From Eledone cirrhosa (lineage: Eukaryota), in assembly GCA_964016885.1 (NCBI GenBank), contig OZ024742.1:158844001-158908000 (forward strand): a DNA stretch of 64,000 nucleotides, given 5' to 3'. The notes under the pieces were generated by a model. That model was not told the origin of the DNA. It worked only from the letters and a program-made list of their open reading frames with translations, and made no database searches. Each line of letters opens with the position of its first letter. Positions within the stretch are counted from its first letter, which is position 1. The position numbers were made by a program, and so were the translations under genes. Positions 24,522 through 55,677 of this stretch are shown here, piece after piece.

Positions 24522-24677
24522 AATAATTGTTTCTACATTTGGCACAAGGCCAGCAATTATCCCAGTGTAATACTGGTGCTTTATTTTATCGACCCTGTAA
24601 GGATGAAAGTCAAGGTTAACCTCTCATCCTTACGGGGTCGATAAAATAAAGCACCAGTAATACACTGGGGATAATTA
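24522..24677. mobile_element. SINE S1 3' fragment with fold-back inversion
   Basis: Minus-strand 3' part at 24522-24622 followed directly by a plus-strand copy of the core at 24623-24677. Confidence 0.85.
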
Positions 24678-25336: not shown

Positions 25337-25365
<29 letters not shown>

Positions 25366-25372
<7 letters not shown>

Positions 25373-25558
25373 TGTTTCTACTTTTAGGCACAAGGCCAGC
25401 AATTACCCTGTACATTACTGGTACTTTATTTTATCGACCCCGTAAGGATGAAAGGCAAAGTTAACCACGGCGGGATTTGAACTCAGATTGTAAAGGGACG
25501 TAACTATGCTAGAAAGCATGGCGTCCAACCCTCTACCGATACTGCCAATTCACCGCCC

Positions 25559-25560
<2 letters not shown>
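25366..25560 (-). mobile_element. SINE S1, full length, embedded in (AAT)n
   Basis: A/B boxes, core, tail; (AAT)n on both sides. Confidence 0.9.
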
Positions 25561-25607
<47 letters not shown>

Positions 25608-25880
25608 TTTCATTTATTGGCCACAAGGGCCGACATATAGGGGACAATACAAAAGACTGGGACAGTGGGGTTTTACAGAAAAATCGAGTAAACAATATGA
25701 ATAAACAAAGTAACAATAACAAAGTCACAATAAAGTAACAATAAAATTACAACAAGAAAAAATTCCCCAATAGGGGGGATGACCACCTAGGGTTCGTTCA
25801 GGTACCCCACCAGTCCTGAACGACCCGACGCTTTGAGAGCACCCTGGAAGGGCACCCCTCTCCTCTTCAAATGTACCTAC

Positions 25881-28800
25881 CTACAGCCGCATGACCAGAG
25901 TAGGCCCACTCACACGGGCCATTCTCGCCACATTCACCCACCTTTCAGCAAATGTACTCTGGGGCAGCACTTCTCTCTCCACCCTCACCTTCCTTTCCAA
26001 GTGAAACTTGAAAAAGTTGATGAGGGATTGACCGAAGAGAAAAGTGTCTGTCTTCAGTCCTTTCAACCTCGTCCACCATACAACCTCTTTCGCTACTGCC
26101 ACCAGACAGAGGAAAGTTGCCTGCCCTTCCTGTCCAAAAGAAGGCGGCGGGTCGATCTTCACTATGGACTCGGCCGATAGCCGGATCCGTTCTACACGCG
26201 ACACAGCTGTTCAACATAACTCCACAAGTCAGTAATGCACGGACACTGGACGAATGCGTGCAGAACGGTTTCGTCGCTCTGCGCGCATCTCGGGCAGGTC
26301 CGTCTGACAGCACTTCCGTGCCTGTAGAGTTTATCTCGAACCGGCAGTGCCCCCCGGTAGCACTGCCAAGCGAGGGATTTTTGGAAATTATCCATCGTCC
26401 CCGGCTCGAAAGTCTTCCGGTACAGACTGGTTAGTTCGACTTCGTTGACTCCCAGAGCCTCTCCGAGTGCGTCGTCGCACTTGCCCACCACTAATCCTCT
26501 ATAGAACTCGAGAGTGGAAGTTCCACTGACCGCATTGCCCGCTTGGTAGAGGGCAGTGAGTGCCTGGCAACATTCCAGATGCCAGTCACCCAGTCTCGGT
26601 CTCTTCTTGACCCAAGACTGCAACTCAGTCAAAGAAACGAGCTGCGGAAAGGCCCGTCTGACAAACGGCGACCACACCTGTTCACCGTTTAGGCAGAATA
26701 TCTGGAGGTGCCGCAGCCTCAGCGCGTGCCTGCGCATCATTAGCCACGGCATGCCCAGCCCTCCACGTAGAGGGTGCTGGCAGCAGATGGACCGCCTCAC
26801 CAGCGGAACCTGACCCCTCCACAAGAATTTGAAGAGGAGTGCTCCAAGATGGCGAGGCGCGAACGGGGACAAGGGACGACAGTCAGACGGTAGTAGATGA
26901 CGGACGCGATGTACGCGTTCGCCACCTCCGCCCGACCTTTCAGTGATAGCTTCATCCCAGCCCATTTCTGGGTGAGACTGACTACCCTGCCCGTCACCTC
27001 GTCCCAATTCTTATCCACCTGGAACCAAACCCCTAGCAACTTTACCGGTTCGTCCGTCCAGCGCCTAACGACGCTGTTGGACGGCATAGACTTGCCTCTC
27101 CAGGTGCCGAGTTGCAAGCCTACTGACTCTTCCGGGTTAAGTTTTGCTCCTGTCAACCTTTCATATTCCTCCAATAAGTTGCCGACCACCTCGATTTCTA
27201 AGGTGTCCGACACCATCACGGTGATGTCGTCCACATAAGCCGACACAGCCTTTCTGCGTCCCGGTTCGAGCGGGATGCCCTGCAACAGCTCCAGCTTCCG
27301 CAGTAAAGACTCGAGAGTCAATACGTACAGAAGGGAGGAGAGAGGGCACCCTTGACGGACCGATCGGGAGACCTGAAACGGTTCCGAGAGGTGGCCATTA
27401 ATTTTGATCATCGAGCAGGTGCCGCTGTGCATTGCAGCGATCTAGCTTCTGAAGACGGGGCCGAAGCCAGCCGCCTTGAGGACAGCCTCCAGGTACCGAT
27501 GGTCGACCCTATCGAATGCTTTCGATTGATCTAAATTGATCAGAGCCCCACCGAAGCCAGGTTTACACCCTACCATCTCTATGATGTATCGCATTAGGTG
27601 GAGGTTGTCGGGTATGGACCTGGTTGGGATTGCGCAAGTTTGCGCCTCCCCAACCAAATCCCCGACGACAAGCGCCAACCTCTTCGCTAACACCCTGGCC
27701 AAAATATTAAACTCTGTGTTGAGCAGAGTTATGGGCCTGAAATTGTCTAATGTGTCCCTCTTGTTCTCGTCTTTCCTTATCAGCGTCACTACTCCCCGGC
27801 TCACAGAACTGGGAATATTCCCGTTTTGCTCCAGTTGCAGTAGAGGGCTTCGAGGAGATTGGAGAACAAGTCTGGCATATTTACGTAAAGCTCGTAGGGC
27901 AGACCATCCAAACCGGGTGACTTGCGCCTCATGCAGCCTACAAGTGCATCCTGAATCTTGGCTCAAGTAATTGGCCTTTCGCAGCGCCCAGCATCAGCCG
28001 TCGAGAGTTGCGGCAAGCCATCGAGGTAGAGACTGAAGTCCGCCACCATCTCTGACCCGCCACTTCTCCCGAACAACCGAGCAAAATGTTGGCGAAAGGC
28101 CTCACACATCCTCTTGGAATCGCTCAGCTCGTGCCCGTCTCGGTCCGTCAAAGAGCGAATCGTGGTTTTATTACCACGCTGCGCCTCTGCCACGCGGGCC
28201 CATCGAACAGCTTTGGTTCCCTCGTTTCTCAGAGCACGCGCCTTAGCTCTGACAATGCAACCTTCGTGTTTCGCATTGAAGAAATGGTCTAATGCCATTC
28301 TCGCCACTAGCACATCAGTTGCAATGCCACTACCAATAGCCTCGTCTAACTTATCTACCAACTCCCCCTCCTTTCTATTTTTCTCTAATGCTACTTCTTT
28401 GCTAAACTCTATCGACATTACTCTAATCTCTCTTTTGAGAGCCCCCCACCATCTATTGTTGATGACTCCCCCTATCAACTTTTTCTTAACTAAATTGTTG
28501 ACCTGGTCCCTGTAAGCCTTACGTGCCGGAAATGACATGTTTAGCTTCCAGTAACCAGGTCCTAACCTACGCGTCTTATCTAGGTCGACCATACAGATCA
28601 CAAACTTGTGATCTGAATAGGCGACCGTTTCAAAACGTGGACAGCTTACACTATTTCTGTCTATTTTCTTAATGAATATCCTGTCTATATACGATCTAGT
28701 TGACCCTATGCGGTTAGCCCAGGTCTATAGTGGCGAATTAGAGAAATCTAGTCGGTATACCTGTCAGACAGTTGGAACTGGCTGATCAGGTTCTTGAGGC

Positions 28801-29292
28801 TTTTGCACCCCCCGCTCCTATCGGATACTCCCACACAGTCCCAGCGTGCGTCTAAGATGCCGTTCCAGTCACCCGCTAACAGTAAAGGGCGAGACGTACC
28901 CAGAAAGGCTTCCAGGCGTCTAAAGAAGTCCGGCCGTCCTGCCCCGGTAGGAGCATAGACGGCCACCAGTCTAAAGGCACCACCTTCATTATTGTTCATG
29001 TCCAGGACAACCAACTTCCCGTCCGGGTCCCGGAAGATCGACCTTACCTCGAGATCCAGGCCTTTCCTAAACAGCACTTCCACCCCGCCTCCCATTCCCG
29101 GCCGGCTAACAGATGCAAAGATCTGATAGTCGTCGAAAATGGGGGCTAGTGCGCGGGTGTCGGAAATCCTGGTCTCGCTGACTGCAATTACATCCATTTC
29201 TATAGACCTGAGGTCGTTGAGCAGGTGACCCTGCTTCCAGGACTATCCCAGGCCTCGAACATTTAAACATCCTACTCTTAATACGGCAATGA
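25881..29292 (-). pseudogene. Tx1-A ORF2 (APE endonuclease, RT, zinc finger), frameshifted
   Basis: LNVRGL, VSET, VYAP, GDWN, GPGYWKLN, FRPITLLN, DQSKAFDRVDH, VRQGCPLS, AYVDD, CPRC..ETVLH. Confidence 0.9.
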
Positions 29293-29321
29293 TGGCAGGT
29301 TAAAGAGAGAGAGAGGAAGAT

Positions 29322-31323
29322 TTACTTACCTTCCGGGCTCTTGTGAAGGTCGGGTTGTTTGACCTCCATAGTTAGTGGGGTTTCTTTTGGGAACCCCTTT
29401 AAAAGTCTTGAAGGGTGTTTTACGTTCGGGGTTCCCACGTCCCGAGGAAAGCTGTCTCGTATTTCTTTGAATATGTCGAGCGACATTCGCACCAGAACCA
29501 AATCTTCCGGCACGCGAAATGTGCTCGATTTAAAAATGTCCCCCTCTTTTTGTATATTTTCACTTCGTGCTACGAGGGCCATCAGTTCCTTGTTGGCCCT
29601 CCTGACGAGCACGAAGTTTTGTATGTTTTGTTGGTGTGATTTTATTTGTTTGCGTGGCTGTGGTGGTGATGGTTTGGGTGGTGTTGTTTCGGTTGTATCT
29701 GTGTTTGTTGTGAGTGCGGTGTCTGTGGTTTCAGATGTTTGTGTGTATATTTGTTCTTGCGTGTTTCGGATGTTTGCGTTTGGGGGATTCTGGTGATGGT
29801 GATGGTGGTGTTGATGTTGGTGTTATTGGAGAGATGTTTGCGTGGGTGTTGTCTGCGTTTTTTATTGTGGGTGCTTTTGTGTTTTGTTGAGTTTTTTTTT
29901 TTTTCTTTTTGTGTTTCCTTTTTTGTATTTTGGGGGATTTGGGATTTCTCTCATTTTCACTACTGGTAGATGAGGGGTCTGTGTCTGTAAGTGTGTCTGT
30001 ATGTATGTTTAAGGTTTTATTGGTGTGTGTATTTTGGGGGGAGGGGGAATAAGACAGCTTTCCTCGTTTCTCCCCTGGGTGGTCAATGTTGGTGGTGGTC
30101 TTTCTATTGGTGTTGTTGTTGGTGGTTCTGCCGGTGCAGGTGTTGGTTGTGGTCCTCGCCCCGGCGTCGGCAGCAGTGGATCCTTTCGACCCCTTGCCTC
30201 TTTCAGCAGTTGAGGGCAGAAGGCTCGCAAATGGGTTTTTTCCCCACAAACAAAACACTGCGGCCTTTTGCCTTCGGTCATAATGTGAATGACCGTCCCA
30301 TTCTGAAGGCGGATGTGGTCTGGGATTGTCTTCACATTCTCGGGCCTGATCTGGAGAAGGATCTCCAGGTCAACCCCGGACCAGTCCTCTCTGGCCGTTC
30401 TGGTCACTTCTATAGGGACTGTATCCGTCCCCTCCACAATCACACATCCCAGAAGCCACCACATGTCAAGTCCTGGTGGGATTCTGGGAATGCGGAGACG
30501 GGCCGTTTTTTTTACCATGTGGGAGGGGTACATTATGACCTTGCTGGTTTTGCAAGGAGCCATAACGTGTTTCATCGCGAGGGCTTCTGACTTGAACAAC
30601 ACTGAAATGGTGCCGTACTGTCTGCCCCTCTCTATGTACTGGGTGTCTTCTCTGATGCACCTCAGCGCGACTTCGACATCTTCTTGTGGGATTAACGCTG
30701 CCCTTTTGAAACCAAAAGGGCAGTGAGATGCATCTATAATGCACCGTTTTGCGCTCCACTGCCTCAATAGCTTCTACCGGGACAGTTAAGTTGGCCCAAG
30801 TTTTCTCTTGCTTAATGAGCTTCCATGCCTGGGCCAACTTTTCATCTTTGTTTGAGAGGTCCATCTTGAAGCATGGCCTCTTTTTTGCTGCTGCCGCAGC
30901 GAAAGTGGTCTTGTTTTCGTTGGGGGTGTTGTTGGTGTTGTTGTTAGCACTGTCGCTGTTATCATTGTTGTCTTTGTTGCCACCGTTGTTCTCGGTGCAG
31001 TTGGTATTGTTGCTGTTGGTGTTGTCGCTATTTGTTTTCATGTTAGTGGTGTTGATATTGTTGTTGTATTTGTTATTTTTTTTTTTTTTGTTATCTGTAT
31101 TTTCGTTGTCGCTGTTACTGTCATTTTTTTCAAAATTAGAGTTCTTATTGGTATCATTGGTGTATTTGTTTACCTTGTTTGTGGTGGTGTTTGTGTTATC
31201 AATGTGTGTTAATTTTGCTGTAGCGCTCCTCTCAACTTCTACGTCGCTGTCGCACGACAGCCGACATATCGCTGGGGGGCGTGGCTCAACCATGTTTTTT
31301 TTTCTTCGTAAATTTTTTAACAT
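29322..31323 (-). pseudogene. Tx1-A ORF1 (gag-like, CFVCGEKTHLRAFC), frameshifted
   Basis: ORF pieces 30466-31323, 30009-30767, 29731-30258, 29322-29612; Asn-rich N-terminus. Confidence 0.8.
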
Positions 31324-31745
31324 GTAAAAAAAAGTTCAAATATTTGGGCCAAAAGGCCCAAATATTATACTTTGCCCTTCACGGGGCAAAGTCTAAGGGC
31401 TTATATCCCTTACACAACAAGAAATATTTAACAACAAATAATTTAAACAGGCAAATAAAGCGACTTACTGTGAGCGAGCAAAATACGTCCATAATAATAA
31501 TGATTTCTTTATTAACCACAAGGGTTTACATAAAGTAGACATTAAGGACAGTGCAGGACAATACAAGACGGTACAAATGGGCATTTCTGCGTGTAAAAAC
31601 AGAGGATGTAACAAAAAAATAACAATGAAAAATTCCCCAAAAGGGGGGAGACTTCGGAGGGACATTTATGGAGAAAGCCCATTAAAAGGCCACAGTGACC
31701 TTGACGACCAGGGCAAGTGCCCTCTCCCAGTTTTCCACCTGTAAT

Positions 31746-34700
31746 TTACAGGCACATACTCAGAGTAGGCCCATTCACTCGGGCCATTCTTGCTTCTCTC
31801 ACCCATCTTTCAACAAAATGCTGGGAAGAGAGCACTTCCCTCTCTACGCTGATTTTCCTTTTCAAATGAAATTTGAAAAAGTCAATCAGGACATCACCGA
31901 AGAGGTAAGTGCTCGTCTTCAGCCCTTTCAAACGTGTCCACCATACTATCTCTTTCGCCATGGCCACCAGACAGATAAAAACTGCCTGCCCTTCCCGGCT
32001 AAAAGAAGAGGGCGGGGGCAATCCTCACGATGGACTCAGCTGATAGCTGGATCCGTCCTACACGCAACAGCAGGTGTTCGACATAAACCCACAAGTCAGC
32101 AATTTTCGGACACTGGACGAGTGCGTGCAGGACGGTTTCGTCGCCCTGCGCGCATCTCGGACATGCCCGGCTGACGGCACCTCCATGCCTGTAGAGTTTA
32201 TCCCGAACTGGCAAAGCTCCTCGGTAGCACTGCCAGGCCAGGGATTTCTGGAAGTTGTCCATAGGCCCTGGCCCGAAAGTTCTTCCGAAGAGATTGGCTA
32301 GTTGATTTTCGTCGACGCCTAGAGTTTCCCCAAGTACGTCGTCGCTCTTCCCCTCCACTAATCCTCTCTAGAACGCCAAGGTGGTGTTTCCACCGATCAC
32401 ATTGCCCGTTTGGTCGAGGGCTGTGAGCGCCTGAAGACATTCCAGTCTCCAAGCGCTCCATCTCGGTCTTCGCTTGACCCAGGACTGCAGCTCCGTTAAG
32501 GAAACGAGCTGGGGAAAGACACGTCTAGCAAACGGCGACCACACCTGAGGAAGAGGTGGAGATGTCGTAGCCTTAGCGCGTGTCTGCGCATCATCAGTCA
32601 CGGCATGCCCAGCCTTCCACGTAGCGAGTGTTGACAACAGATGGACCGCCTGACCATCGGAGAGCGTCCCTTCCACAAAAATCGAAAGAGCAAACGCTCC
32701 AGCGCAGTCAGGCGGGGCTTAGGACAAGGTACGACGGTCAGGTGGTAGCAGATGACAGACACGATGTACGTGTTAGCCACCTCCCCTCCAACCTTTCAGG
32801 GATAGCTTCCTCTCCGCCCATTTCTGGGTGAGAGAAGCCACCCTGCTCATCACCTTGTCCCAGTTTTTGTCCGTCTGGAGGTCTGGACCGAACCAGACCC
32901 CTAGCAATTTAACCGGTCCGTCCGTCCAGAGCCCGACGACGCTGTTGGACGGCATGGACCTGCCTCTCCAGGTGCCGAGCTGCAGGCCCACTGACTTTTC
33001 CTGGTTGATCATTGCTCCTGTCACCGCTTCGTATTCTCTTAGTGTAGTGCCGATCGCCTCGATGTGTTTGGCGTTCGACACCACTACGGTGACATCATCC
33101 GCATATGCTGACACGGATCTTCCGCATCCTAGTTCGCGCGGGACGCCCCTCAACGTCTCCAGTTTGTGCAGTAATGGCTCGAGAGTCAATACGTACAAGA
33201 GGGACGAGAGGGGACATCCTTGGCGGACCGAGCGCATGATGTTGAACGGTTCCAAAAGGTGACTGTTCACTCTCAGCACAGAGCAGATGTCGCTGTGCAT
33301 GGCAGCGATCCAGCCTCTGAAGACGGGGCCAAAGCCAGCCGCCCTCAGGACTGCCGCTAGGTAACGATGGTCGACCCTATCGAAAGCTTTCGACTGATCT
33401 AAATTGATCAAGGACCCACCCGTGCCAGGTTCCCTAGCTACCCTCTCTACGATGTGTCGCATGAGGTGGAGGTTGTCGTGGATGGATCTGTCGGGAATCG
33501 CGCATGTCTGCGCCTCTCCCACAAGACCACCAACGACAAGTGCCAACCTCTTTGGTAGCACGTTGGCCAAAATCTTGAACTCTGTGTTTAGCAGAGTTAT
33601 GTGCCTGAAATTATCTATGTTATCCCCCTTGTTCGGATCATTTCTTAGCAGTGCCACCGCTCTTCGGCTCACAGAGCTGGGAATTCTCCTGTTCTGTTGC
33701 CAGTTGCAGTAGACGTCCGCCAAGAGGCCTCCGAATAAGTCTGGCATTTGTACGTAAAGTTCATAGGGCAGACCATCCAAACCAGGCGATTTACCCCCTG
33801 TGCAGCCAGTCATTGCCTCCCGTACTTCAGCGTCTGTTATCGGCTTTTCGCAACACTCCGCCTCAGTGGCCGAGAGCCGCGGCAGTCCGTCGAGGTAGAC
33901 ACTAAAGTCCATCCCTCGATCCGGCCCGCCGCTGCCCCCGAACAGTTGAGCGAAGTGTCGCTGAAAAGCTTCACACATTTTCCCGGGATCGAGTAGGATG
34001 CGCCCGTTGTGGTCCACCAAAGACCGGATCGTGGCTTTGTTTCCCCACGGGCCCATTGAACGGCTTTCGTCCCCTCGTGTCTGAGAGCACGCACCCTAGC
34101 TCTGACAACGCAGCCTTAGTTCTTTGCATTGAAGAATTGGTCAAGGGCCAGTTTCGCCGCAAGTACGTCGGTCGCGATGCCTTTGCTAAGCGCCTCGTCT
34201 AATTTTCTAACTAGTTCTCCCTCTGCTCTATTTTTCTCTATAGCTAAAGCCTTACTAAACCTAATGGACTCTATTCTAATCGCTCTTTTCAGAGCAAACC
34301 ACCACTTGTTGTTGACGATGGCCCCCGTCAACGCTCGCTTAACTAGTTCGCTAATCCGGTCTCTGTAGGCCTTGCGCGCTGGTAAGGACGCGTTTAGCTT
34401 CCAATAGCCGGGTCCTTGTCTATGAAGCCTATCTAAGTCAAGCACACAGATCACGAATTTGTGGTCCGTATAGCTGACTATCTTGAATTGTGGACAGCTT
34501 ATGCTAGACCTATCTATTTCCCTACAAAATACTCCATCTAGATATGATCTGGATGACCCTATGCGATTTGTCCACATTGGCACATTTGGGAAATCCAATC
34601 GGTACCTGTCAGACAGTTCAAAATGCCTGAGCAGGTTGGTGAGGCTCTTGTACCCTCCTCCCCTATCCACTAATCCCACACAGTCCCAGCGTGCATCTAA

Positions 34701-34913
34701 GATCCCGTTCCAGTCGCCCACTAACACTAGAAAGGTCTCCAGACGCCGGAAGTAATCAGGCTGCCCTGCTCCTGTCGGGGCATAGACGGCCACTAGCCTG
34801 AAAGCTTGCCCTTCTTCGCTGGTCATGTCCAGCACCACCAACTTACCTTCTGGGTCCAGGAAGATGGACCCCAAGCCACGCGTATTTATGCTGCCTATTC
34901 TGAGTGAGGTCAT
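31746..34913 (-). pseudogene. Tx1-B ORF2 with an internal deletion in the APE N-terminus
   Basis: INTRGLGS jumps to IFLDPEGK (the SET motif region present in A is missing); KSPGLDGLP, KAFDRVDH, VRQGCPLS, AYADD. Confidence 0.9.
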
Positions 34914-34947
34914 GTTGAAATGGAGTGGAAAAGATGGGAAAGACCAC

Positions 34948-37062
34948 TTAACGTACTTTTCGTAGAGGAAGGATAGTTTCTCCATCCCTTTTCACTTGAT
35001 CGTCTGGTGAAGGGACCGGTGAATCGCCCCTTCGGCTGCTCGTCGGCTCTTCTGTGAGTATATCCGAATATACCCTCCGGTTGAGTGTCCCTCCTAGGTC
35101 TCTGAAATCACCAACTGCGTTGGGGAATATCGTTTTAATATTTGTGTATTGTTTCTGTGCTATTTTTACCAGCCTTATGTTCGTTGGTGTTTTGATTGGT
35201 GCTGGTATTATGCAGTCGTGCTGTGAAATGTCTGTGTTCAATTATGTTATTAGTTTCTTGTGTGTATTTATTGCTGTGCATTTGTTTTTCTGAGGGTGGG
35301 TGTGGTTCTGCTATTTTCTTGTCGTTGTTGCTGGGTGCGTGTGTTTTGTTGTTGTGTTTGTGATGTTGGTGCTTGTGGTGGTGGTGTTGAAGGTGTTGTT
35401 GTTGTTTGCGGTGGGGTTGCCGCCGGTGGTGATGGTGGTGCTAGTGTGGGTGGTGATGGTGTTGTGTAGTGTTGATGTTGTAAGTCTCTTTCCAGTAACC
35501 TTTACCCTTTTTTCATTTCTTTCCTCCCTTTTCGAAGGCGACGATGCGCTGCTTCAGCGTTTGTGCCTTCTTGCGACCTTTTGCCATCCCTCTCCCACCT
35601 CACACTCCATGTCCGATTCTGTGAGGTCGGGGAGGGGTACCAGCTCCACTCTTTCACTTGTTGTTGTTGGTGATGTTTGCAGTGGAGTCTCTGTTGGAGC
35701 TGCAGTTGGTATTACTCTTGTTGTTGTTAATACTTCCACTGCTGCTGCTGTTCTTGATTTCCGTGGCGTGGGTATGGGTTCCACGGACCTATCCTTCCTG
35801 GTTGCCGCCTGTCCTGTTGCTGGTAGCAGTGGAGCCGGAGGGGGGGTTTCTCCTTTCTCGGGGTCTTCTCGTTGCAGAAGGCCCTGAGGTGAGTCTTCGA
35901 TCCACAGCGAAAGCATTTCGGGCGTTTGCCCTCAACACTTATGGGCAGTTGAGTGCCGTTATCGAAGTCTATCACATCCGGGATAGCTTCGATGCACTCC
36001 TGGTTGGTTTGGATTAACATCTCAATGGAGGTTCCGACCCAATCTTCTCGTACTTTGTCTGTACTTGCAGTACAGTTGTTTTGTCCTCAATTCCGACGAG
36101 GACAGACGCGGCCAGCCAAGAAGGGGCCATCCCGGGGGTGGGGGGACGTGGGTCAGTTTGACCCTCATAATTTTTTGCCCGCAGTAGGAGGGCACCAACA
36201 CCATTTCCTCGCTCCTTATGGTCACTAAGGATTGAGCCTTTGCCTCCTGGGGTGTGGCAAAAAGCACGTCCACGGTGGCATATTTCTTTGCTCGGGTGAT
36301 ATGCGTTTTCCGCTGCCACACAGACCCTAAGGCTTTTTGTATTTGAGCCTCTGTGGCTCTTTCAACTCTACGGGATTTTGTGCTTACTGTACGGTACGTG
36401 ACCGTACAGTGCTGTTGGGTTTCGAAAAATTTTTCGGCTGCCTTGCAGATTGCTCGGTGTCCGGTTTTCGTCACCATCTTCTTTGCTTCCTGTAATTCCT
36501 CATTTGTTATGAGGATGGTTTCCAGGTTCTTTGCGATACCTGCAAACGAGATTGGTTTTTCTTTGCTGCTGTTGTTGTTGTTGTTGTTGTCAGAGCTGCT
36601 GTTACTTTTGTTGTTGCTGCAGGTACTACGACTACTGCCGCCGCCGCTGTTGCTGTGGTTGTTGTTGTTGTTGCTGCTGATGCTGTTGTTGTTGCTGTTG
36701 CTGCTAATGCTGTTGTTGTTTATGCTGCTGCTGTTGTTTTCCTTGTCACCGTTGCTTCTGCTGCTGTTATTACGGCTGCTACTGCTATTATTCATGACGT
36801 CAGACGAATGAAATGGGTTTTCGTATTTACCGCACACCTTTTTCGTCGTTGTCGTCGTCGTGGAGAAATGTTCCATGCTTTGCACGTGATTTTGGAAACT
36901 ATTTTTCTTTACTGGCGTCGATTGCGAAAGAGAAAGGAGGGAGAGAGACACATTTAGAAAAGGGAGAGAGAGAGACAATCTTCTCTCTGCTGTAGTGACG
37001 ATTGAGGAAGAAGAAGACGGAATGAGTGGGAGTGACTTGTGAAAATTCTTTTTCGTAGTCAT
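34948..37062 (-). pseudogene. Tx1-B ORF1 (CFRCGSKTHLRAFC), frameshifted
   Basis: ORF pieces 36022-37095, 36014-36319, 35727-36020, 35554-35916, 34948-35241; Ser/Asn-rich N-terminus. Confidence 0.8.
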
Positions 37063-37296
37063 GTTTTTTTGGTTTAAAATAAATATTGGGCACAAAACCC
37101 CAATAAGCGGTTATTTAACCCCGAAGGGCCAAATAACGGGCAGAAAGACCCCTCTCACGAGGAGGAGGGTGTTTTTGTCTACAATTTGGTTAAAGTTTTA
37201 AACAATTTACAATTGTTATAGCGGTCAAAATTTACAATACCTTACAGAGCCGAGCCTCCGTCAACCATGGCATTCAATAATAATAATAATAATAAT

Positions 37297-37810
37297 AGAA
37301 AACGCACATGGTGGATATATAACGTTATGGAATCGCTCCCGTAAGTTTTTGATTTTTACTTCTTTAAAACAACTGTGATAGAATAATTCTTATTACAAAT
37401 GAACAATAAGATTACAGTTTTCACGTTCAGCATCACTTTACGGCATAGGGCCCCAATATTTAATAATTTTGGATCAGAAATGTTATAGTCGAAAAGGAGG
37501 AAAATGGCAAAATGGCTAAATAGCTAAATGGCTAAGTGGACAGACAGAAAAATAATTTCACCACCAACACCACGACCACTACCACGCTAAAAACTCTAGT
37601 CAAGATACCTCAACTTCTATTTCTACTTCAACTTCAACACCATCACTACAGTACTACGATAACATCACCACCACCACTGCCTCATTATCGCTACCGCCGC
37701 TATTCTCTCCCACTACCTCCTGCTAAGACATGCATCGTAGTGTCCCCACTAAAAGAGGAAGGCATCAAAAGATATAAATAGACTGATTTGATGACCCGGT
37801 CAAAAAATCC
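37297..37810. repeat. Unassigned repeat unit X, copy 1
   Basis: acgcacatggtggata..aatcgctcccgtaagtttttgattttta and aaaagatataaataga..tgacccgg are shared with 41911-42670. Confidence 0.7.
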
Positions 37811-38014
37811 AAAAACCAAAAATCAAAATCAAAGCAGCACAGCAACAACGAGAAACGTAAAGAAAAGAAAAATGAAAAGAAAAACAAACAGACAGACAGA
37901 GAAGGGAAGGGAAAAACTAAGTCAGACATTCAAACATGACATTACAATGAAACTTATGCTTATTCTTTTTGTTTTGTTTTTTGTTTTTTACCTATTTGTT
38001 TGTTTGTTTATTTA

Positions 38015-41000
38015 TGTTCGTCTACAGCGTGATAGTGCCACACAAAAATCAACGGGAGTGATGAAATCACCGGTGGTTATGTAACCATACATTCACCAAT
38101 CCTCGATAAGAGTGTTTAAATGTCGAACCTAAACAGTTCGAATAACGGTGAAGTGGAGACTGGAATGTCATGTAACAGACTCTCACCCAGAAGGTGCTCC
38201 CTGGCTCAGCAGCAGGGACCTGGCTGTCAACCAAATACTGCTTGTGTCGGAAGAAGAAGAAGAAGAAGAAGAAGAAGAAGAAGAAGAAGAAGAAGAAGAA
38301 GAAGAAGAAGAAGAAGAAGAAGAAGAACCAACTGGACGAAAGAATTGAATAGAACTCTTATGCAATGTTACGTGAAGAGTAACCCCAAGGAGAAAGGCTA
38401 TAGGAAACGGATGCATAACATCTGGAACGAGATTGGTCTATTTAAATTAGATGAACAAATGGCTGGATAAGCGAGCTAGAACTGGAGGAACTGAGCAGAG
38501 AGATTAGGTTGGAAATGGTGAGTGGAGTATGCCAGGCAAACGAGCCAGTGGGAAATGAAGGTGAAGAGGTTGAGAGAACGGAGGAACCATCCGAAGCAGA
38601 CAATGATCTGAATCCTGAAATAAATAATACCTGGAACAAAGACACGGCCGTTGAGGAGATGAATGCTGACGGGCTAGGACAAGATTTGGTTGATATCCTA
38701 AATTTAGTGGTAGATGAATTGAACAATGATAGTGGGAAACCTATGAACCTAAGATTTGTAGACAGGAAAAAGTTAAAAGAAACAACAGCTAAGGTAAACA
38801 AAGTCATCCCATACCTTGAGGCGAGGAGCCTTCACCAGTGCAACAATATCCTCAAAGCAACAGCAAATGCGGTGAGGAAATTACTTGGTATAAAAGCGAG
38901 AGGAAACAACAAACAAGAAAGATCAGAGCCTTGGTGGAAGAAACGACTGAATGGTCAAATCAGGGAAATGAGAAATGACATTGGAAAGCTTGAGTCCCTA
39001 CTGAATGGGACACTAAAAAACATAGACATTAAAAATAGACTGGAAATAAAGTACAAAACTAGGAGGAAAAAGCTAAATATTATCATAGAGGAACTGAAGC
39101 AACGCATTGTAGCAAAGAGTGCAAAAATTAGGCGATACGAGAGCAGAGTCAGTCAGTAAAGACAGAACCGCATGTTTGACAACAGCCAGAAGATGCTGTT
39201 TGGACAGATTGAAGGGAAAGAAAGAGGCAACGACTTGATCCCTGAGGCGGAACAAACTAAGACATTCTGGAGAGGAATATGGGAGCAGGATGTTAAACAT
39301 AATGACCAGGCAGTGTGGATTGAGACAGTACAAAAGGAGATTAGTGAGCAGGCACACCAACAAACTGATTTGAGTATCACAGTTGAAACTCTTAAGGGGG
39401 CAGGCCAAAAAACTAACCAACTGGAAATCACCAGGCCCAGATGGTGTGCAGGGGTATTGGATTAAAAATATAACATCCCTCCACCCGAAACTGACAACCA
39501 TGTTCAATGACTGCTTGATGTCAGGTGAGGTACCAGAGTGGTTGACAAAAGGTACCACAGTTCTGGTAATGAAAGACCGAATCAAGGGTAATGATGTTAC
39601 CAACTATAGACCTATCACATGTCTGTCCGTAATGTGGAAACTGTTGACAAGCATTATGTCTGAGGAAATCTACCATCACCTCCACACAAACAACTTGTTA
39701 CCGGACGAACAGAAAGGATGCCGAAAGAAGTCCCGTGGTACAAAGGACCAGTTACTTATTGATAAGATGGTAATGGGGAATTGCAAGAGGAGACACACTG
39801 GTCTTGCCATGGGATGGATAGACTACAAAAAGGCATTTGACATGGTGCCTCATTCTTGGATCACCAAAAGCCTAGAGATCTTCAAGGTGGCAGATAACAA
39901 CAGACAGTTGTTGGGCAAAAGTATGAAGTCCTGGAAAACAGAGTTAACATCAGCTGGAGAATCCTTGGGAGGCGTGAAGATCAAGAGAGGTATCTTCCAG
40001 GAAGATAGTCTGTCCCCTCTGTTGTTTGTCCTTGCCCTGATGCCCCTGACCATTATACTGCGAAAAGTGAGAGCAGGATACAAGTTGGGAAAGAGAGAGC
40101 TTACCATTATGCACCTCCTCTTCTTGGACGATCTTAAGCTCTTCGGGAAGAGTGAGAAGGAGTTGCATGTGCTTGTTGACACTGTCCGTATTTTCAGCAA
40201 TGATATATGTATACAATTTGGTATTAGTAAGTGTGGAGTCCTTGTGATGAAGAGGGGTAAATTGAGCAGAAGCAACGGAATCCAAGTACCGACAGGTGAG
40301 ATGATAAAGGAAATTGACACTGAAGAAGGATACAAGTATTTGGGTGTTCTGGAAGCTGATGACATCAAGAACAAAAAAATGAAAGAATTGATAAGATCTG
40401 AATACATTCGGAGAGTAAGGGGCGTATTAAAGTCACATCTGAACAGTAGGAATGCCATAAGTGCAGTAAATTCCCGAGCTGTGTCTATTATTAGGTACAG
40501 TGCGGGAATTCTGAGATGGAATGTTGCTGAACAAAAAGAAATGGATGGGAAGACTAGAAAGCTATTGACTATCTATAACATGTTCCACAAGAGGAGTGAT
40601 GTCGATAGACTCTACTTAAGGAGATATAAAGGTGGAAGAGGTCTTATCAGCATAGAGAACTGTGTTCAGATAGGAGAAAAACAACCTACACAAATACGTG
40701 ACTGATAGTAAGGAGCAAATGCTCAGAACTGTACTAAAGGAGAGGACAATAGACCAGGGGATATCCAAGGAGGAAATAACAACGAGGAGAAAGAGCAGCC
40801 TTCATGAAAAATCCTTTCATAGTACCTTCTTTGAGAAAACTGAATTCAGAGATCCACAGACATGGAACTGGTTGAAAAGAGGAGACCTTAAAAAGGCTAC
40901 AGAAGGAATGTTAATGGCTGCGCAAGAGCAGGCCCTCAAAACGAAGTGGTTGAAACACCATACTTACAAGGAGGAGGCTAGCCCACTGTGCAGGATCTGT

Positions 41001-41633
41001 GGAGAGAGAGAGGAGACTGTGGCTCACAGTGTATCCGAGTGTAAACACCTAGCCCAGACTCACTATAAAGGCTGGAGACATGATGGGCAGGGTGATCCAC
41101 TGGCACCTATGCAAAGTAAACAATTTACCACATTCTGAGAAGTGGTATGAGCATAAGCCAGAGTCGCTGATAGAAAACGATCAGGTGAAGGTGTTGTGGG
41201 ATTTTAGGATACAGACGGACAAGAAACTGGAACACAATAGACCAGACCTGGTGGTTTTGGACAAAGAAAAAAGGTTGTGCCTGATTGTAGATGTAGCCTG
41301 CCCATTCGACACGAGAGTGCAAGAGAAGGAGAGGGAGAAAATTAACCGATACTAGGACTTAAAGTGGGAGGTAAAAAGGATTTGGAACTGCCATGAAGTC
41401 AAAGTGGTCCCGATTGTCATAGTCGCATTTGGTACTATCTCAAAAAGTTTCCAGGGATGGTTAAAGAAAATTGGCCCCGCCACGCTTTTTGGAACGCTTC
41501 AAAAGGCATGCTTGCTGGGAACAGCAAGAACCCTCCGATACGTCCTGAATATCTGAGGCTGCAGGTAGTGGCTTGATATTCATTTCAACAAACTTTCCAG
41601 TTAACTAACATCAATGACTAAGACTCAAAGAAC
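38015..41633 (+). mobile_element. Dong/R4-clade RLE LINE, copy A, near full length, inactivated
   Basis: NWKSPGPDG, YRPITCL, QKGC, WIDYKKAFDMVPH, GIFQEDSLSP, FLDDLKL, CRICG..ET..H..C, RPD..VD..CP endonuclease; (TAA)n tail. 5' boundary approximate. Confidence 0.9.
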
Positions 41634-41642
41634 AATAATAAT

Positions 41643-41740
41643 AATAATTGTTTCTACGTTAGGCACAAGGCCAGAAATTACCCAGTGTGTTACTGGTACT
41701 TTATTTTATCGACCCCGTAAGGATGAAAGACAAAGTTAAC
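41643..41740 (-). mobile_element. SINE S1 3' fragment in the Dong-A (TAA)n tail
   Basis: Tail and core present, truncated at aaagttaac. Confidence 0.9.
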
Positions 41741-41754
41741 AATAATAATAATAA

Positions 41755-41785
<31 letters not shown>

Positions 41786-41910
41786 AAGAAGAAGAAGAAG
41801 AAGAAGAAGAAGAAGAAGAAGAAGAAGAAGAAGAAGAAGAAGAAGAAGAAGAAGAAGAAGAAGAAGAAGAAGAAGAAGAAGAAGAAGAAGAAGAAGAAGA
41901 AGAAGAAGAA
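41741..41910. repeat. (AAT)n-(GAA)n microsatellite
   Basis: About 51 perfect GAA units. Confidence 0.95.
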
Positions 41911-42670
41911 GACGCACATGGTGGATAGAAGGTCGTGAAATCGCTCCCGTAAGTTTTTGATTTTTAACATATTTAAATCAATTGTGAAATAACAATTCTT
42001 AGTACAAATGATACATAAAGCATCCGACTTAAATCTCAGAAAAATTCGGATCCATAATATATTGTCATATCGCTCAAATATTCAATTTTGTATTATACAT
42101 TTTATATTCAAAAAAGAAAATGGTTATAAATGGAAGAAAACCCCTCTGTCTATACTATATAGAACAGCCAAATAACAGCAATTTCACCAACACCAGAAAC
42201 TAGATACACCACCTACCCCATCACCCCCTCTGTGTACACTAAATACAACAGCCAGATAACGGCAATTTCACCACCACCACCACCAATCTCAGCATAATAA
42301 TAATAATTACTATTATTATTGTCTCAAGTTTTAACAAAATGTTTAATTCCAATATTAAGAAAATATGTCAACACATATATTAAACATACGCGACAAACGC
42401 ATAGATACACAGATCAAACAAAACTAGTCTATTCAACAACACTCAGTAACGACAACGCCATCACTATAGTCACCGCCGCCACCACTCCATCCATCATTGC
42501 CACCACTATCCCATCACCGCCGCCACCACTCCTTCATTGCTACCACCACTATTCCCCCATTACCTTCTGTTAACTTAAGAAAGGGGAAGGTGGCGGTATC
42601 ACTAGACAAGGGACAGGCTAGCAAAAGATATAAATAGATTGACTTAGTGACCCGGCCACCGGCCAAACGT
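41911..42670. repeat. Unassigned repeat unit X, copy 2
   Basis: Diverged homologue of 37297-37810. Confidence 0.7.
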
Positions 42671-42799
42671 CAACGACTATGGCACTGCTGGCTCCCCCCT
42701 TCCCCAGCAACAATAGAAAAAGCCCCAGCACCACCACCGACATAGCCAACAACAATAACAGGCAACTTCAGCAAAAAGTATATTATATTATTAATAATT

Positions 42800-45700
42800 T
42801 CATTCTTAAGCCACGCAATGCTCACATTAAGGAACCACTCATGATAATAACAATTTAAAAAACAACAAAAAAGAAAACCCCGTGACCAAGAAATACCGGG
42901 ATGGCGGCCGGCGGGGAATAGCCGTGTCTCTAGGGGAGGACGACCACTCTAGTCTTGGTTGACACTCGTCCTAGAAGTGGTAACACGAAATGATTACCCC
43001 TTGGCGGATAAGGATAAAACGCGACAAAATAAAGTAAATGTCTAATGATAAAATCTCATACCGGATCGGCCGTCACCCGGGTCAAAAAGGGCCGCGTCCC
43101 TCAGAGAGGAACCAGACTGGGGTCGAAAAATCAGTTAATGGTTCAAACCTTCCCATCACTTCGGAGCTGGAGACCTCCCATAACCGGAATACTCCTACTG
43201 TTGGCCCTCCATGCTCACCACCAAGAAATCCAAAGAAAAAGAGAGAAAAATGGTCAAGGGAAGATAATAAAGAAGTCCTTGAGGATTTCTACACTGCCAT
43301 GTACTACCCATCAAATACATCGAATACAGAACAGACATATATCAACTGGAAAAAGAAACATCCCGAAAACAGAGGCTATATTGACAGTAACAAACTAGCC
43401 AATATACGAAGAAATATTGTAAAAAAAAAGTTACTAACTGATATAGAAATTGATCAGATGAAGCTATTAGCACAAAGTCAGCGAAGGGAAAATGAAACAT
43501 GTGTCAGTGAAAATGAGGTAAATTGTAACACTTCGAATCCCAGGGTTGGGGCGGAATCACTGACAACAGAACAAATTAAAGAAAGGATCGAAAAAGTGGA
43601 GGGAGTGCATGCTCAAGATGAAACTCCAAATGAAAATAATGAGATCGTAAATGATAAAGAAATGAATGAGAATGAACTTGCCAACTTGAAGGATGAAATT
43701 ATGATCGAATGGATGAAAATGAAAGAATCTGACATGGGGGAACGAGACACCCTCCCTAAGATCCAGAACTCCAAACAGAACCAAAAGATAATACACAAGA
43801 CTAACATAATTCTCAAAAACATTATCATCAGAAACAAACTAAACATTACTGACTTAAATCATCTCTATTATGCAGCGGCTAAAGTCACCACTCACTTATG
43901 TGGGGTGAAGATGAAAAAACAAAGGAATTCCCACAAAAAATCTACTTGGCAAGAGAACATCAATCGCCAAATAAACTTTCTCCGATCTGACATAGAAATT
44001 TTAACAAACTATAAAGTAGGTGAACATGTTAAACAAACTAAACTTAGAAAATTGAAAAGAAAGTACAGTATAAAATCAACAAGTGACATAGACATGCTGA
44101 TAGAAATAATCAAGCAAAAAGTGTCGGCCCAAGCTGCTCGTATAAGGCGATTTGAAAAACGATCTAGATTCTATAAGGACAATAATATGTTCAAAAACAA
44201 CCAAAGAAACTTCTACAGAAAAATTGGTAAGTCAACAATAACTGCTAAATCAATACCACCCAAGGAGGAAGTGCAAGAATTCTGGGAAAAGATCTGGGCC
44301 GAAGAAAAAATTCATAATATACATGCCCCATGGATAGACAGACAAATGAAAGATACAGCTCACCTTGAGGAACAAATATGGGAAAATATAACAGTTGAAC
44401 AGTTGCGTTTGGCTCTAAGAAAAACCAGCAAATGGAAATCCCCAGGAAAAGACAAAATACAAATTGTTTGGATAAATGCCTTCACAGAGTCTCATGCGCT
44501 GTTAGGCAACTTTACAATGAAATAGTTAAGGAGCCAGAAAAGATACCATCATGGCTAGTTAACGGCATTACATTCCTGCTTCTGAAGAATGATGAGACAA
44601 ACAATCCCAAAAATTACAGACCGATAACTTGCTTGACCACAATGTATAACATTTTGACATCAGTCCTAACTGAATATACATATGACCACCTGATAACAAA
44701 TGACCTATTTCCCATTGAGCAGAAAGGGTGTAAACGAGGCTCATATGGCTGCAAGGATCAGCTTTTTGTTAACAAAATGATACTGGAAGATTGTCATAAT
44801 AGACACAAAAATCTATCAATTGCTTGGATAGATTACAAAAAAAGCATTCGATAGTTTGCCACACAGTTGGATTGAAAAATGTTTAGAGATTTTCAAAATA
44901 TCTCCCGTTGTCAGGAGGTTTTTATCATTCAGTATGAAGACATGGAAAACGACACTCCTTTTGAATAGTGAAACAAAATCACTGGAAGCTGGAGAAGTTA
45001 ATATTAATTGTGGAATTTTTCAGGGTGACTCTTTATCACCGCTTTTATTCTGCATCGCACTTATACCATTAAGTAAAATGCTCAATGAAACAAAACATGG
45101 ATATAAAGTCTATGACAAAACCATTAATCACTTGTTCTACATGGATGGCCTGAAACTATTTGCAAAAAATGATGAACAATTGCAAGGGCTATTATCCACT
45201 GTGGAGCAGTTCAGTGATGACATTAAAATGGAGTTTGGACTAGATAAATGCGCCAAAGCAACGTTCACCAGAGGAAAGCTGCTGAAGAGTTCAGACATTA
45301 ATCTTGATCGGGGGAACGTGATAAGAGAACTTGATCAAGAAAAAACTTACAAATATCTAGGTGTTTGTGAAGGAGACGTAATCAAGCACTCGACAATGAG
45401 GGAAAGGATAAGGAAGGAATGTTATCGCAGAGTAAGAGCAATCTTAAGAACGGAATTGAATGCAAGGAATAGGATCGATGCCATAAACACGCTTGCCATA
45501 CCAGTAGTAACCTACAGTTACAATGTCATCAACTGGTCAAGCACAGAGATCCGTAGGCTCGATACAAAAATTCGAAAATTCTTAACCATGCACAGAATGC
45601 ATCACCCTAAGGCAGATATAGATAGAATATATCTCCCTAGGAAAGAAGGAGGACGTGGGTTAATCCAGTTAGACATTGCGTTGAAAACTGCAACAATTGG

Positions 45701-46832
45701 ATTATCTACATACTTAAGGGAATCACATGATTGGATGATGAAACTCGTTTTGAAACACAAAAGTATCAAAAGAGCATACTCCATTACAAAAGATGCACAA
45801 AGATACAGTAATGGACTACAAATTTCAGAAGTCCCACTTACTGCTGAAATGGAAAACACAGAAAAAGCAAAGCAGGTAAAAGTAACTGCAAAGAAAGAAC
45901 TGCTACAGAAACTGGCTAAGAAATGGCAAGAAAAGCCTCTGTATGGAAAATACCCAGAACGAGCTAACAATCCTGATGTTGACAAAACTTTAACCCATCA
46001 GTGGTTGGCATCCTCTGGACTGAAATTGGAGACTGAAGGACTGATTATATCAGCACAAGATCAGTGTCTGCCAACAAAAAATTACGAAGCCAACATAATA
46101 AAAAATGGATGCAGCCCATTATGCCATGTATGTAAAACACAACCAGAGACCATTGACCATATAATTTCAATGTGCAGTCCTATAGCTCCAACAGAATATC
46201 TAAACAGGCATGACAGAGCTGCACAATACATACATTGGATAATGTGTAAGCATTTTGACCTGCCCCATCAAAATAATTGGTGGGAGCATCAACCACCTCC
46301 CATACTTGAAAAAGATCACATCGCAATCTTGTGGAACTTTAGCATCCAAACAGACTGAAAAATAGATGCAAATAGACCTGATATAATATTGAAGGACTTT
46401 AAAAAGAGGGTATGCTTGCTAATTGATATGTCCGTTCCAATAGACAAGAATGTATCTACAAAAACATTTGAAAAATTGAGCAAGTATAAGGACCTGGAGA
46501 TAGAAATTGGAAAAATGTGGAAATTGAGAACTAAAACAATACCAGTGGTTGTAGGCGCTCTAGGAATGATACCTAAGGGGTCTAATGATTACTTATCGCA
46601 AATCCCAGGAAACCCGCGTATAGGAGAAATACAAAAGATAGTTCTAATGGGAACTGCCCATATACTAAGGAAGATTCTGTCAATATAAGTACATCACAAG
46701 TCTAAACACCTAAAGATGCATGTGTGAGTATGTATGTTCTTTCTTGAACATGGCGGACCTTGTTGTCTCTTGAGGTCACTGGTTGTGACTTGGTGACAAC
46801 TCGTATGAACATAAAGCAAGATAAATGCAGCT

Positions 46833-46833
<1 letters not shown>
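42800..46833 (+). mobile_element. Dong/R4-clade LINE, copy B (different family), near full length
   Basis: ORF 43038-46688 broken by frameshifts and a stop: KWSREDN, KWKSPGKD, YRPITCL, GIFQGDSLSP, YMDG (catalytic D lost), CHVC..ETIDH..C, RPD..IDMSVP; (TAA)n tail from 46834. Confidence 0.92.
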
Positions 46834-46907
<74 letters not shown>

Positions 46908-46912
<5 letters not shown>

Positions 46913-47081
46913 TGTTTCTACTTTTGGTACAAGGCCAGCAATTATCCCAGTTACTTTTACTTTATTTTATCTATAATAATAATAATAATTGTTTCTACGT
47001 TAGGCACAAGGCCAGCAAATACCCAGTGTATTACTGGTACTTTATTTTATCGACCCCGTAAGGATTAAAGGCAAAGTTAAC
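46908..47081 (-). mobile_element. Two tandem SINE S1 3' fragments in the Dong-B tail
   Basis: 46908-46972 and 46985-47081, separated and flanked by (AAT)n. Confidence 0.9.
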
Positions 47082-47139
<58 letters not shown>

Positions 47140-47143
<4 letters not shown>

Positions 47144-47402
47144 CTAAGGGGTCTAATGATTACTTATCGCAAATCCCAGGAAACCGCGTATAGGAGAAAT
47201 ACAAAAGATAGTACTAATGGGAACTGCCCATATACTAAGGAAGATTCTGTCAATATAAGTACATCACAAGTCTAAACACTAAAGATGCATGTGTGAGTAT
47301 GTATGTTCTTTCTTGAACATGGCGGACCTTGTTGTCTCTTGAGGTCACTGGTTGTGACTTGGTGATAACTCGTATGAACATAAAGCAAGATAAATGCAAC
47401 TG
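47140..47402 (+). mobile_element. Dong-B family 3' fragment
   Basis: Near-identical to 46569-46833; flanked by (TAA)n. Confidence 0.92.
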
Positions 47403-47424
47403 TAATAATAATAATAATAATAAT

Positions 47425-47872
47425 GTGAAGGTGCTGTGGGATTTTAGGATACAGACGGACAAGAAACTGGAACACAATAGACCTGACCTGGTGGTTGTGG
47501 ACAAAGAAAAAAGATCGTGCCTGATTGTGGATGTGGCCTGCCCATTCGACACGAGAGTGCAAGAGAAGGAGAGGGAGAAAATTAACCGATACCAGGACTT
47601 AAAGTGGGAGGTAAAAAGGATTCGGAACTGCCATGAAGTCAAAGTGATCCCGATTGTCATAGGCGCACTAGGGACTATCTCAAAAAGTTTCCAGGGATGG
47701 TTAAAGAAAATTGTCCCCTTCACGCTTTTTGGAACGCTTCAAAAGGCATGCTTGCTGGGAACAGCAAGAACCATCCGATACGTCCTGAATATCTGAGGCT
47801 GCTGGTAGTGGCTTGATATTCATTTCAACAAACTTTCCAGTTAACTAACATCAATGACTGAGACTCAAAGAG
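47425..47872 (+). mobile_element. Dong-A family 3' fragment
   Basis: Homologous to 41185-41633 with an open RLE frame; flanked by (TAA)n. Confidence 0.92.
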
Positions 47873-47904
47873 TAATAACAATAATATAATAATAATAATA
47901 ATAA

Positions 47905-47972
47905 TAATAATTGTTTCTACTTTTGGTACAAGGCCAGCAATTATCCCAGTTACTGGTACTTTATTTTATCTA
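47905..47972 (-). mobile_element. SINE S1 3' fragment
   Basis: ttgtttctacttttggtacaaggccagc; same variant as the 46908 fragment. Confidence 0.85.
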
Positions 47973-47981
47973 CGGACAAGG

Positions 47982-53850
<5,869 letters not shown>

Positions 53851-55646: not shown

Positions 55647-55677
<31 letters not shown>

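Follow-up and report, generated by a model that had tools for sequence, protein, structure and literature searches.

Two LINE machineries of opposite polarity probably share a (TAA)n hotspot in Eledone cirrhosa

A nest of retroelements was analyzed in a 64,000-nt stretch of Eledone cirrhosa DNA (contig OZ024742.1, positions 158,844,001 to 158,908,000; hereafter the window), which is animal DNA with many microsatellites and zero N. The nest (25356..47972) consists of 13 retroelement pieces lying end to end, and is read, with a probability of about 0.65, as a (TAA)n hotspot filled by two target-biased long interspersed element (LINE) machineries of fixed opposite polarity. One would be a Tx1-type LINE with an apurinic/apyrimidinic endonuclease (APE), which likely also moves a short interspersed element (SINE); the other would be formed by Dong/R4-type LINEs with a restriction-like endonuclease (RLE). 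The original prediction, in which an APE LINE and an RLE LINE occupy the same (TAA)n tract with opposite orientations, was upheld on this point, in that the domains were seen and the Dong polarity held in loci outside the window.

Results

Layout of the nest

All 13 pieces were recovered in the order and on the strands first described: SINE(−), Tx1-A(−), Tx1-B(−), X1, Dong-A(+), a SINE fragment(−), X2 and Dong-B(+), followed by two SINE fragments(−), Dong-B′(+), Dong-A′(+) and a last SINE fragment(−). The 22.6-kb nest contains 13 runs of at least three TAA/TTA units, against 3 across the rest of the window (41.4 kb). The description of nearly every junction as (TAA)n was borne out: with both outer edges included, 11 of 14 junctions hold clean (TAA)≥3, the X2/Dong-B junction has just a decayed TAA remnant, and the X1/Dong-A junction and the right edge of the nest are without TAA. 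Long tracts follow two of the LINEs on their 3′ side, (TAA)26 at Dong-B and (TAA)15 (25560..25604) at Tx1-A. Like neighbours are present (Tx1–Tx1 and Dong–Dong), so that the pieces do not alternate.

All four long LINEs (Tx1-A, Tx1-B, Dong-A and Dong-B) carry stops and frameshifts. It had been claimed that no element interrupts the body of another; this stands for the LINE open reading frames (ORFs), none of which is broken by another element, and is qualified by a (GAA) run in Dong-A and a TAA/TTA tract inside X2 (42294-42319). The former is a perfect run of ~26 units (38250-38327), in frame as poly-Arg in the N-terminus of Dong-A; its reading as an insertion was rejected in favour of what was probably in-frame slippage of Arg codons. 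A second perfect (GAA) run, of ~52 units within 41756-41911, is fused to the (TAA)5 junction and precedes X2. The claimed strand partition held with Tx1 and SINE on the TTA strand and Dong on the TAA strand; for Tx1 it rests on two nest copies, and the Tx1-like head of X faces the opposite way.

Dong elements and TAA polarity

Dong-A (38031..41633, +; 5′ limit approximate) and Dong-B (42872..46833, +; start approximate) are disabled LINEs with a reverse transcriptase (RT) and an RLE-type region. Each has one ORF, their RTs are ~46% identical, and Dong-B is full-length with a 5′ untranslated region (UTR) of ~170 nt. Pfam matches were obtained to RVT_1 and, weakly, to zf-RVT, with no APE match; among solved structures, only R2 proteins matched Dong-B. 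The translations contain an RPD...D...K stretch, conserved across relatives, which we take to be the RLE motif. Two 3′ fragments belong to the same lineages: Dong-B′ (47142..47402, +) differs from Dong-B by 3 substitutions and 2 gaps over 263 columns, and Dong-A′ (47425..47872, +) from Dong-A by 20 substitutions and 2 gaps over 446 columns. The Dong/R4 label, as well as the Tx1 label used below, is a putative assignment by domain layout, similarity and target rather than by a clade tree.

A metagenome scan was made with an alignment of the Dong-B-type endonuclease; at least 576 stretches matched, 189 were confirmed and the best 80 of the 189 were used. Sense-strand (TAA)≥3 was present within 400 nt downstream in 50 of these 80 Dong-related loci and (TTA) came first in 0/80; the remaining loci had another repeat (5), had none (16) or were too short (9). 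In the window, all four Dong pieces (4/4) have TAA on the sense strand. TAA also lies 5′ of the full-length relatives L004 and L016 and of 5′-truncated relatives, which argues that Dong enters pre-existing tracts. TAA polarity is a family trait of Dong; that Dong targets TAA repeats, as the prediction assumed, is published (PMC3812793; comparisons with published work refer throughout to the parts of each source that were covered), and the polarity is found in the 50 of 80 related loci as well. Among the listed loci of at least 3 kb, all from other animals, no Tx1-type match was found beside a Dong element.

Three further observations concern these elements. A ~25-nt motif lies directly 5′ of the Dong-B start codon (43000-43035) and is conserved in the distant relatives L004 (185-215) and L007 (30-60); it is a candidate signal in translation or RNA structure. 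Tracts of (TAA)n and (TTA)n stand back to back by Dong relatives in other animals (L032, 2600-2698; L013, 214-258) and are possibly tail-to-tail insertions. Ribozymes were looked for at the 5′ ends of Dong elements and in X, with 0 Rfam matches and folding z-scores of −1.05 or weaker.

Tx1 elements

Tx1-A (25606..31490, −), an L1-group LINE of the Tx1 type, and Tx1-B (31502..37275, −), also of the Tx1 type, are full-length and disabled, about 5.8 kb each, with two ORFs; the 5′ end of Tx1-A and the 3′ end of Tx1-B meet at a (TAA)3 junction (31491..31501). Tx1-A is made up of a 5′ UTR, ORF1, an APE–RT–zf ORF2 and a 3′ UTR with a hairpin and AATAAA, and has no poly(A). The two elements are 75% identical along 3.2 kb of ORF2 and their ORF1 frames align. 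Exo_endo_phos, RVT_1 and zf-RVT were matched in Tx1-A, and RVT_1 and zf-RVT in Tx1-B; the endonuclease frame of Tx1-B, which carries a deletion, had no Pfam match and aligns to APE-bearing homologs. Human L1 ORF2 was the best solved structure for the Tx1-B RT (E 2e-31), and the match to a protein named 'transposon TX1 149 kDa' was far stronger (E 2e-67). Among named relatives, the one nearest to the Tx1-B protein comes from Argonauta hians (71% identity).

Both nest copies stop directly before ATTAT, in a register shared with the SINE. A third relative, Tx1-C (16790..17719, +), lies outside the nest; it is 5′-truncated, has 67% amino-acid identity to a shared homolog and ends in a 3′ hairpin of the same form. 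It sits in a (TATC)n/(TC)n tract, possibly with a 6-bp target duplication. In all, three Tx1 3′ ends are thus available, the two nest copies (2/2) in (ATT)n and the third in (TATC)n, and the target therefore differs among Tx1 subfamilies; the tract of Tx1-C suggests target switching inside the lineage. For comparison, Kojima's criterion for a target-specific Tx1 family is that >20% of copies lie beside one target (PMC4494074).

Contigs of four sequencing runs (runs X1–X4) were compared with 25590-38240 only; they are short, come from other samples and are cut at repeats. Both Tx1 families are multicopy in runs X4 and X2, with depth biased to the 3′ side. Two contigs of run X4 carry a Tx1-B-type 3′ end joined to 5 or more TAA units, exceeding the tract of Tx1-B itself, which gives modest outside support for Tx1-B at TAA. 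Searches for Tx1 relatives gave 14 pattern matches in viral contigs and 91 in metagenome contigs, with 0 confirmed in either.

Target site of the SINE

The SINE is ~190 bp long, multicopy and flanked by target duplications. The full-length nest copy (25372..25559, −) has (TAA)n on both sides. ARAGORN and Rfam gave no match to a tRNA-derived head; the element is a candidate for the octopus OK/OR type (tRNA-derived). As regards the MetaSINEs, which are marked by a 66-bp Meta central domain, its central region appeared by eye unlike the BivaMeta/BivaMD sequences (PMC4824008, supplement).

Of the 12 SINE tails in the window, five belong to the nest, and the seven outside it are distributed over both strands. 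ATTAT directly follows all of them (12/12; background 0.0023 per position). The full-length copies outside the nest have direct repeats beginning with ATTAT at both ends (5/5), with lengths of 5, 7, 7, 11 and 11 bp. Since the 5′ copy of ATTAT cannot derive from an RNA tail, the SINE selects ATTAT sites and duplicates them; the ATT after the SINE is target, not tail. The view of the SINE as a (TAA)n-microsatellite specialist was rejected, as the seven outside tails are on both strands and none is in a long (TAA)n tract. Short palindromic structures were noted at 24515-24676, 16401-16537 and 5641-5821, one of them built of two inverted SINE fragments.

A hairpin common to SINE and Tx1 3′ ends

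A C(U/C)UGU loop on a short stem is located 17–19 nt before the end in Tx1-A, Tx1-B, Tx1-C and the SINE; in Tx1-A (25614..25631, −; approximate limits) the stem is 4 bp and the loop CUUGU. The stem pairs differ between the Tx1 elements and the SINE by compensatory changes. In the 128 kb of both strands, hairpins of this form with a stem of at least 4 bp are all 3′ ends of the SINE or of Tx1-A/B (6/6; shuffles expect 1.0), and with at least 3 bp, 11 of 15 are SINE or Tx1 ends (shuffles expect 4.1). In an alignment of 8 distinct rows, 92.9% of the cells pair, 3 of 4 pairs show both-sided change, and the covariation score is reached by 0/500 shuffles. In plain sequence, five SINE tails matched the Tx1-A end such that 0–21 of 2000 shuffles were as good, and did not align with the Dong ends (258–2000 of 2000 shuffles as good).

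The hairpin and insertion register held in common point to Tx1 as the likely mobilizer of the SINE, which would then be a passenger of the Tx1 machinery; the two would face the same way without a third system, and the three families would likely reduce to two machineries. The fuller proposal, that an abundant octopod SINE rides on a target-specific Tx1 lineage whose RT recognizes the CUUGU-loop hairpin of both RNAs and inserts at ATTAT, is given somewhat better than even odds.

Local duplication and number of events

The four SINE 3′ fragments of the nest, S95a (41649..41740, −), S62a (46913..46972, −), S95b (46990..47081, −) and S62b (47912..47972, −; adjoining a Penelope-like element without TAA), are probably two pairs derived from one local duplication, judging by shared marks. 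S62a and S62b have in common a private substitution, a 4-bp deletion and a breakpoint, all absent from the other 10 SINE copies, and differ at 2 positions in 61; the substitution breaks the closing pair of the hairpin, which favours copying at the DNA level. The marks common to S95a and S95b are a breakpoint and a single private substitution, with differences at 5 of 94 sites, so that this pair is weaker evidence of duplication. A single tandem duplication would account for the arrangement S95a...S62a, S95b...S62b. It may have included Dong-B′, unless that fragment is a young insertion of its own; Dong-A′ probably inserted separately.

Independent events are thus plausibly fewer than 13, with a minimum of 2 Tx1, 3–4 Dong, 3 SINE and 2 X. 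Of the three-family picture first drawn, the opposite polarity stood, the count of events came down and, if the SINE is a Tx1 passenger, the families become two machineries.

Discussion

Proposed mechanism

The scheme favoured here would operate as follows. Tx1 and the SINE would land directly 5′ of ATTAT, as indicated by the target duplications of the SINE and by the same 3′ register in Tx1-A and Tx1-B. By target-primed reverse transcription, such a landing places the start of priming on the A-rich strand, and the insert would have the TTA strand as its sense strand; for Dong, priming would be on the T-rich strand, and the TAA strand would be sense. The Tx1 RT would recognize the 4-bp hairpin with its C(U/C)UGU loop, 17–19 nt before the RNA end, and ATTAT could be chosen by the endonuclease or by RNA–DNA pairing at the primer. 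Each insertion would split the tract and duplicate 5–11 bp of target, slippage would lengthen the tract again, and since element bodies offer few such sites, inserts would queue end to end; new inserts would then come to lie between old ones, not inside them. A tandem duplication of an [S95...(TAA)n...S62] unit would have doubled two SINE fragments and possibly the 3′ end of Dong-B.

Several findings weigh against this scheme. The hairpin was defined post hoc from the same sequences, the covariation controls leave relatedness in, and the tail shared by SINE and Tx1 is just ~30 nt. The likeness of the SINE is weak to Tx1-B (16–624 of 2000 shuffles as good) and to Tx1-C (166–459), and two unrelated windows score level with the Tx1-A end against the SINE tails. 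Just three Tx1 3′ ends are available, one of them (Tx1-C) in (TATC)n, and one SINE copy has a weak duplication of 5 bp. Among the 80 Dong loci there are repeats of the same element, 30 loci are without TAA (9 being too short) and none is Dong-A-like. S95a and S95b are no closer (5/94) than one unrelated pair (4/94), and two SINE copies outside the nest break near the S95 breakpoint. Finally, X has no place in the scheme, and the Tx1-like motif at its head points along the TAA strand.

Alternative explanations

The strongest alternative keeps the hotspot and assigns the SINE to another, more abundant LINE of the CR1/L2/RTE type for which ATAAT is likewise the priming site; the SINE would resemble the Tx1 end through convergence or an old exchange of tails. 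CR1 and RTE tails dominate the known SINE/LINE pairs, only 3 of 58 SINEs having L1-clade tails (PMC3472496; PMC3747384), RTE-BovB is strongly expanded in cephalopods (PMC10294476), and the plain-sequence match of the SINE to Tx1-B and Tx1-C is weak. Against this, SINE and Tx1 have the same loop and stem length, place the hairpin equally far from the end and insert in one register, a comparison for which the window held no CR1/L2/RTE 3′ end. We consider this alternative unlikely, at roughly one chance in five.

The original prediction had proposed that the tail of each insertion regenerates target for the other family, the (TAA)/(TTA) runs being RNA-templated tails that each create a target on the opposite strand. 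Both families do end at the same repeat on opposite strands, with (TAA)26 3′ of Dong-B and (TAA)15 3′ of Tx1-A, and a short repeat tail may pair with the primer. The flanks point the other way: ATTAT is also on the 5′ side of the SINE in 5/5 full-length copies outside the nest, where the SINE leaves a target duplication only and no ATT array, and Dong relatives, including 5′-truncated ones, carry (TAA)n on the 5′ side as well. These 5′ sequences imply a target that pre-exists and is renewed by target duplication and slippage. The absence of a Tx1-type match beside the listed Dong loci of at least 3 kb in other animals, and the Tx1–Tx1 and Dong–Dong neighbours in place of alternation, also speak against cross-feeding, which we regard as improbable.

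That part of the array is an assembly artefact, with contigs joined through microsatellites or two S95–S62 haplotypes placed in tandem, is very improbable: the duplicated SINE pairs at the right end do differ by only 2/61 and 5/94 sites and no listed contig piece from the four runs bridges a junction (which, these contigs being short, from other samples and cut at repeats, proves nothing), but the window is free of N, a 98.6% inverted repeat is resolved in it along with long (GAA) and (TAA) tracts, and the junctions fall exactly at element ends, with target-like sequence there.

The X repeat

X1 (37297..38030, +; right limit approximate) is an unclassified repeat with a Tx1-like 5′ head motif facing +, and X2 (41907..42842, +), a second copy, is preceded by (TAA)5(GAA)~52 and followed by the decayed TAA remnant; the two are most alike over the first ~115 nt, and X1 is multicopy in run X4 only. 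A splice-donor-like motif occurs exactly four times in the window, at 31475(−), 37250(−), 37335(+) and 41943(+), in each case 16–39 nt inside the 5′ end of Tx1-A, Tx1-B, X1 or X2; the motif was defined post hoc, and 0.86 occurrences are expected anywhere in a shuffled window. It is a possible internal promoter module at the heads of Tx1 and X.

Two identities were rejected. X is not the 5′ UTR of Dong-B, as the full-length relatives L004 and L016 begin ~170–180 nt before the ORF, directly after (TAA)n; nor is it a terminal piece of Penelope, there being no significant match to the adjoining Penelope ends. The 3′ ends of X did not match Dong or Tx1 3′ ends (35–423 of 500 shuffles as good), and a comparison of X with the 80 Dong-related loci gave nothing beyond simple repeat. 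One possibility is that X1 forms an extended 5′ region in the Dong-A family: X1 and Dong-A are not separated by TAA, and each has high depth in run X4 and is almost missing from runs X1–X3, unlike the 5′ end of Tx1-B. X may instead be a LINE-promoter SINE, by analogy to the mollusc LP-SINEs, which are short and have a LINE-derived 5′ end (a likeness by description; PMC4758252). A remnant of a Tx1-like element on the TAA strand is another candidate, and with it the strand partition would no longer hold.

Neighbouring sequence

A Penelope-like element (47973-53449, −) adjoins the nest; it has a GIY-YIG-type C-terminus by eye, with no Pfam match. A direct repeat of its end is found at 52522-52722, beside (TAA)4, together with an inverted copy of the end, and a 78-bp tandem repeat occupies 52796-53193. 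More Penelope-like copies lie in 55100-64000, with an RT at 55905-57173(−) and another copy at 61205-64000(+). A Penelope-like RT with GIY-YIG (58005-59453, −) is within the 98.6% inverted repeat (57195-58520 versus 59221-60532), and a hammerhead-like motif was seen by eye near 60690. A (GGT)-based tandem array of 1.9 kb is present at 450-2395.

Comparison with known systems

Dong-R4, L1-Tx1, Penelope and SINE repeats are routinely listed in octopus annotations (PMC13282606; PMC8967140), the name Dong-R4 among them (PMC13282606), and in Octopus vulgaris 11.6% of the assembly is SINE sequence (PMC13282606). In the literature searched, mainly open papers and without Repbase or Dfam, no report was found of an ATTAT/(ATT)n-targeting Tx1, of an octopus SINE–Tx1 pair or of a partner LINE for an octopus SINE. 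If the preferred reading is true, what drives one octopus SINE would be identified, namely a Tx1 LINE with a hairpin signal and a target of five bases; this would explain both the landing sites of the SINE and its pile-up with Dong in (TAA)n tracts, and the Tx1 clade would gain a new target. A tail-sharing Tx1/SINE pair would also represent stringent 3′ recognition in an animal L1-group element, and a test case in animals of whether L1-group elements ancestrally recognized RNA by a specific 3′ structure (PMC3472496).

The stringent trait of SINE/LINE pairs, a common 3′ sequence with a stem-loop, is found in the SINE and Tx1, over ~30 nt and as defined post hoc. As in ZmSINE2/LINE1-1_ZM, the stem-loop is short, with a conserved loop and compensatory stem changes (PMC3472496; PMC3747384); unlike in such stringent pairs, the shared stretch is only ~30 nt. 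The table of SINE/LINE tail pairs, as covered, lists neither a Tx1 partner nor a mollusc pair (PMC3747384). Another precedent is SINEU with Tx1-Mar, in which a SINE was also proposed to use Tx1 machinery, from target preference (PMC4494074); SINEU elements have snRNA-derived heads and the case was argued from target and shared 5′ heads, and here it is argued from the 3′ hairpin and the register.

That some Tx1 families target microsatellites (Kibi, Koshi), as had been assumed, is published; the reported Tx1 targets are (TC)n for Kibi, (TTC)n for Koshi, crocodilian (TTCC)n/(TTTC)n, U2 genes and transposons (PMC4494074). Like Kibi and Koshi, the nest copies are Tx1-type APE LINEs set in a simple repeat whose T-rich strand is the sense strand; they differ in the host, a mollusc, and in the target, ATTAT/(ATT)n for Tx1-A/B or (TATC)n for Tx1-C, units absent from the text covered (PMC4494074). 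Dong, DongAg and DongBg target TAA microsatellites, DongBg being a mollusc (snail) example (PMC3812793). The Dong elements resemble them in the single ORF, the RT, the C-terminal RLE-type region and sense-strand (TAA)n at both ends (PMC3812793), and nothing essential differs, the nest holding two divergent lineages (~46% RT identity) in one tract.

The closest parallel to the arrangement as a whole is the insertion of TRAS and SART in opposite directions into (TTAGG)n in Bombyx mori (PMC7265360). There, too, two LINE families occupy one simple repeat in opposite directions with fixed polarity, which was ascribed to the endonuclease; unlike TRAS and SART, which have similar structures and use telomeric repeats, the nest pairs an APE with an RLE element in interstitial (TAA)n (PMC7265360). 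The nest is a real hotspot of a familiar sort (Dong inserts in TAA, Tx1 in microsatellites, and the sharing is of the TRAS/SART kind), to which a new Tx1 target and a new SINE–Tx1 partnership are probably added.

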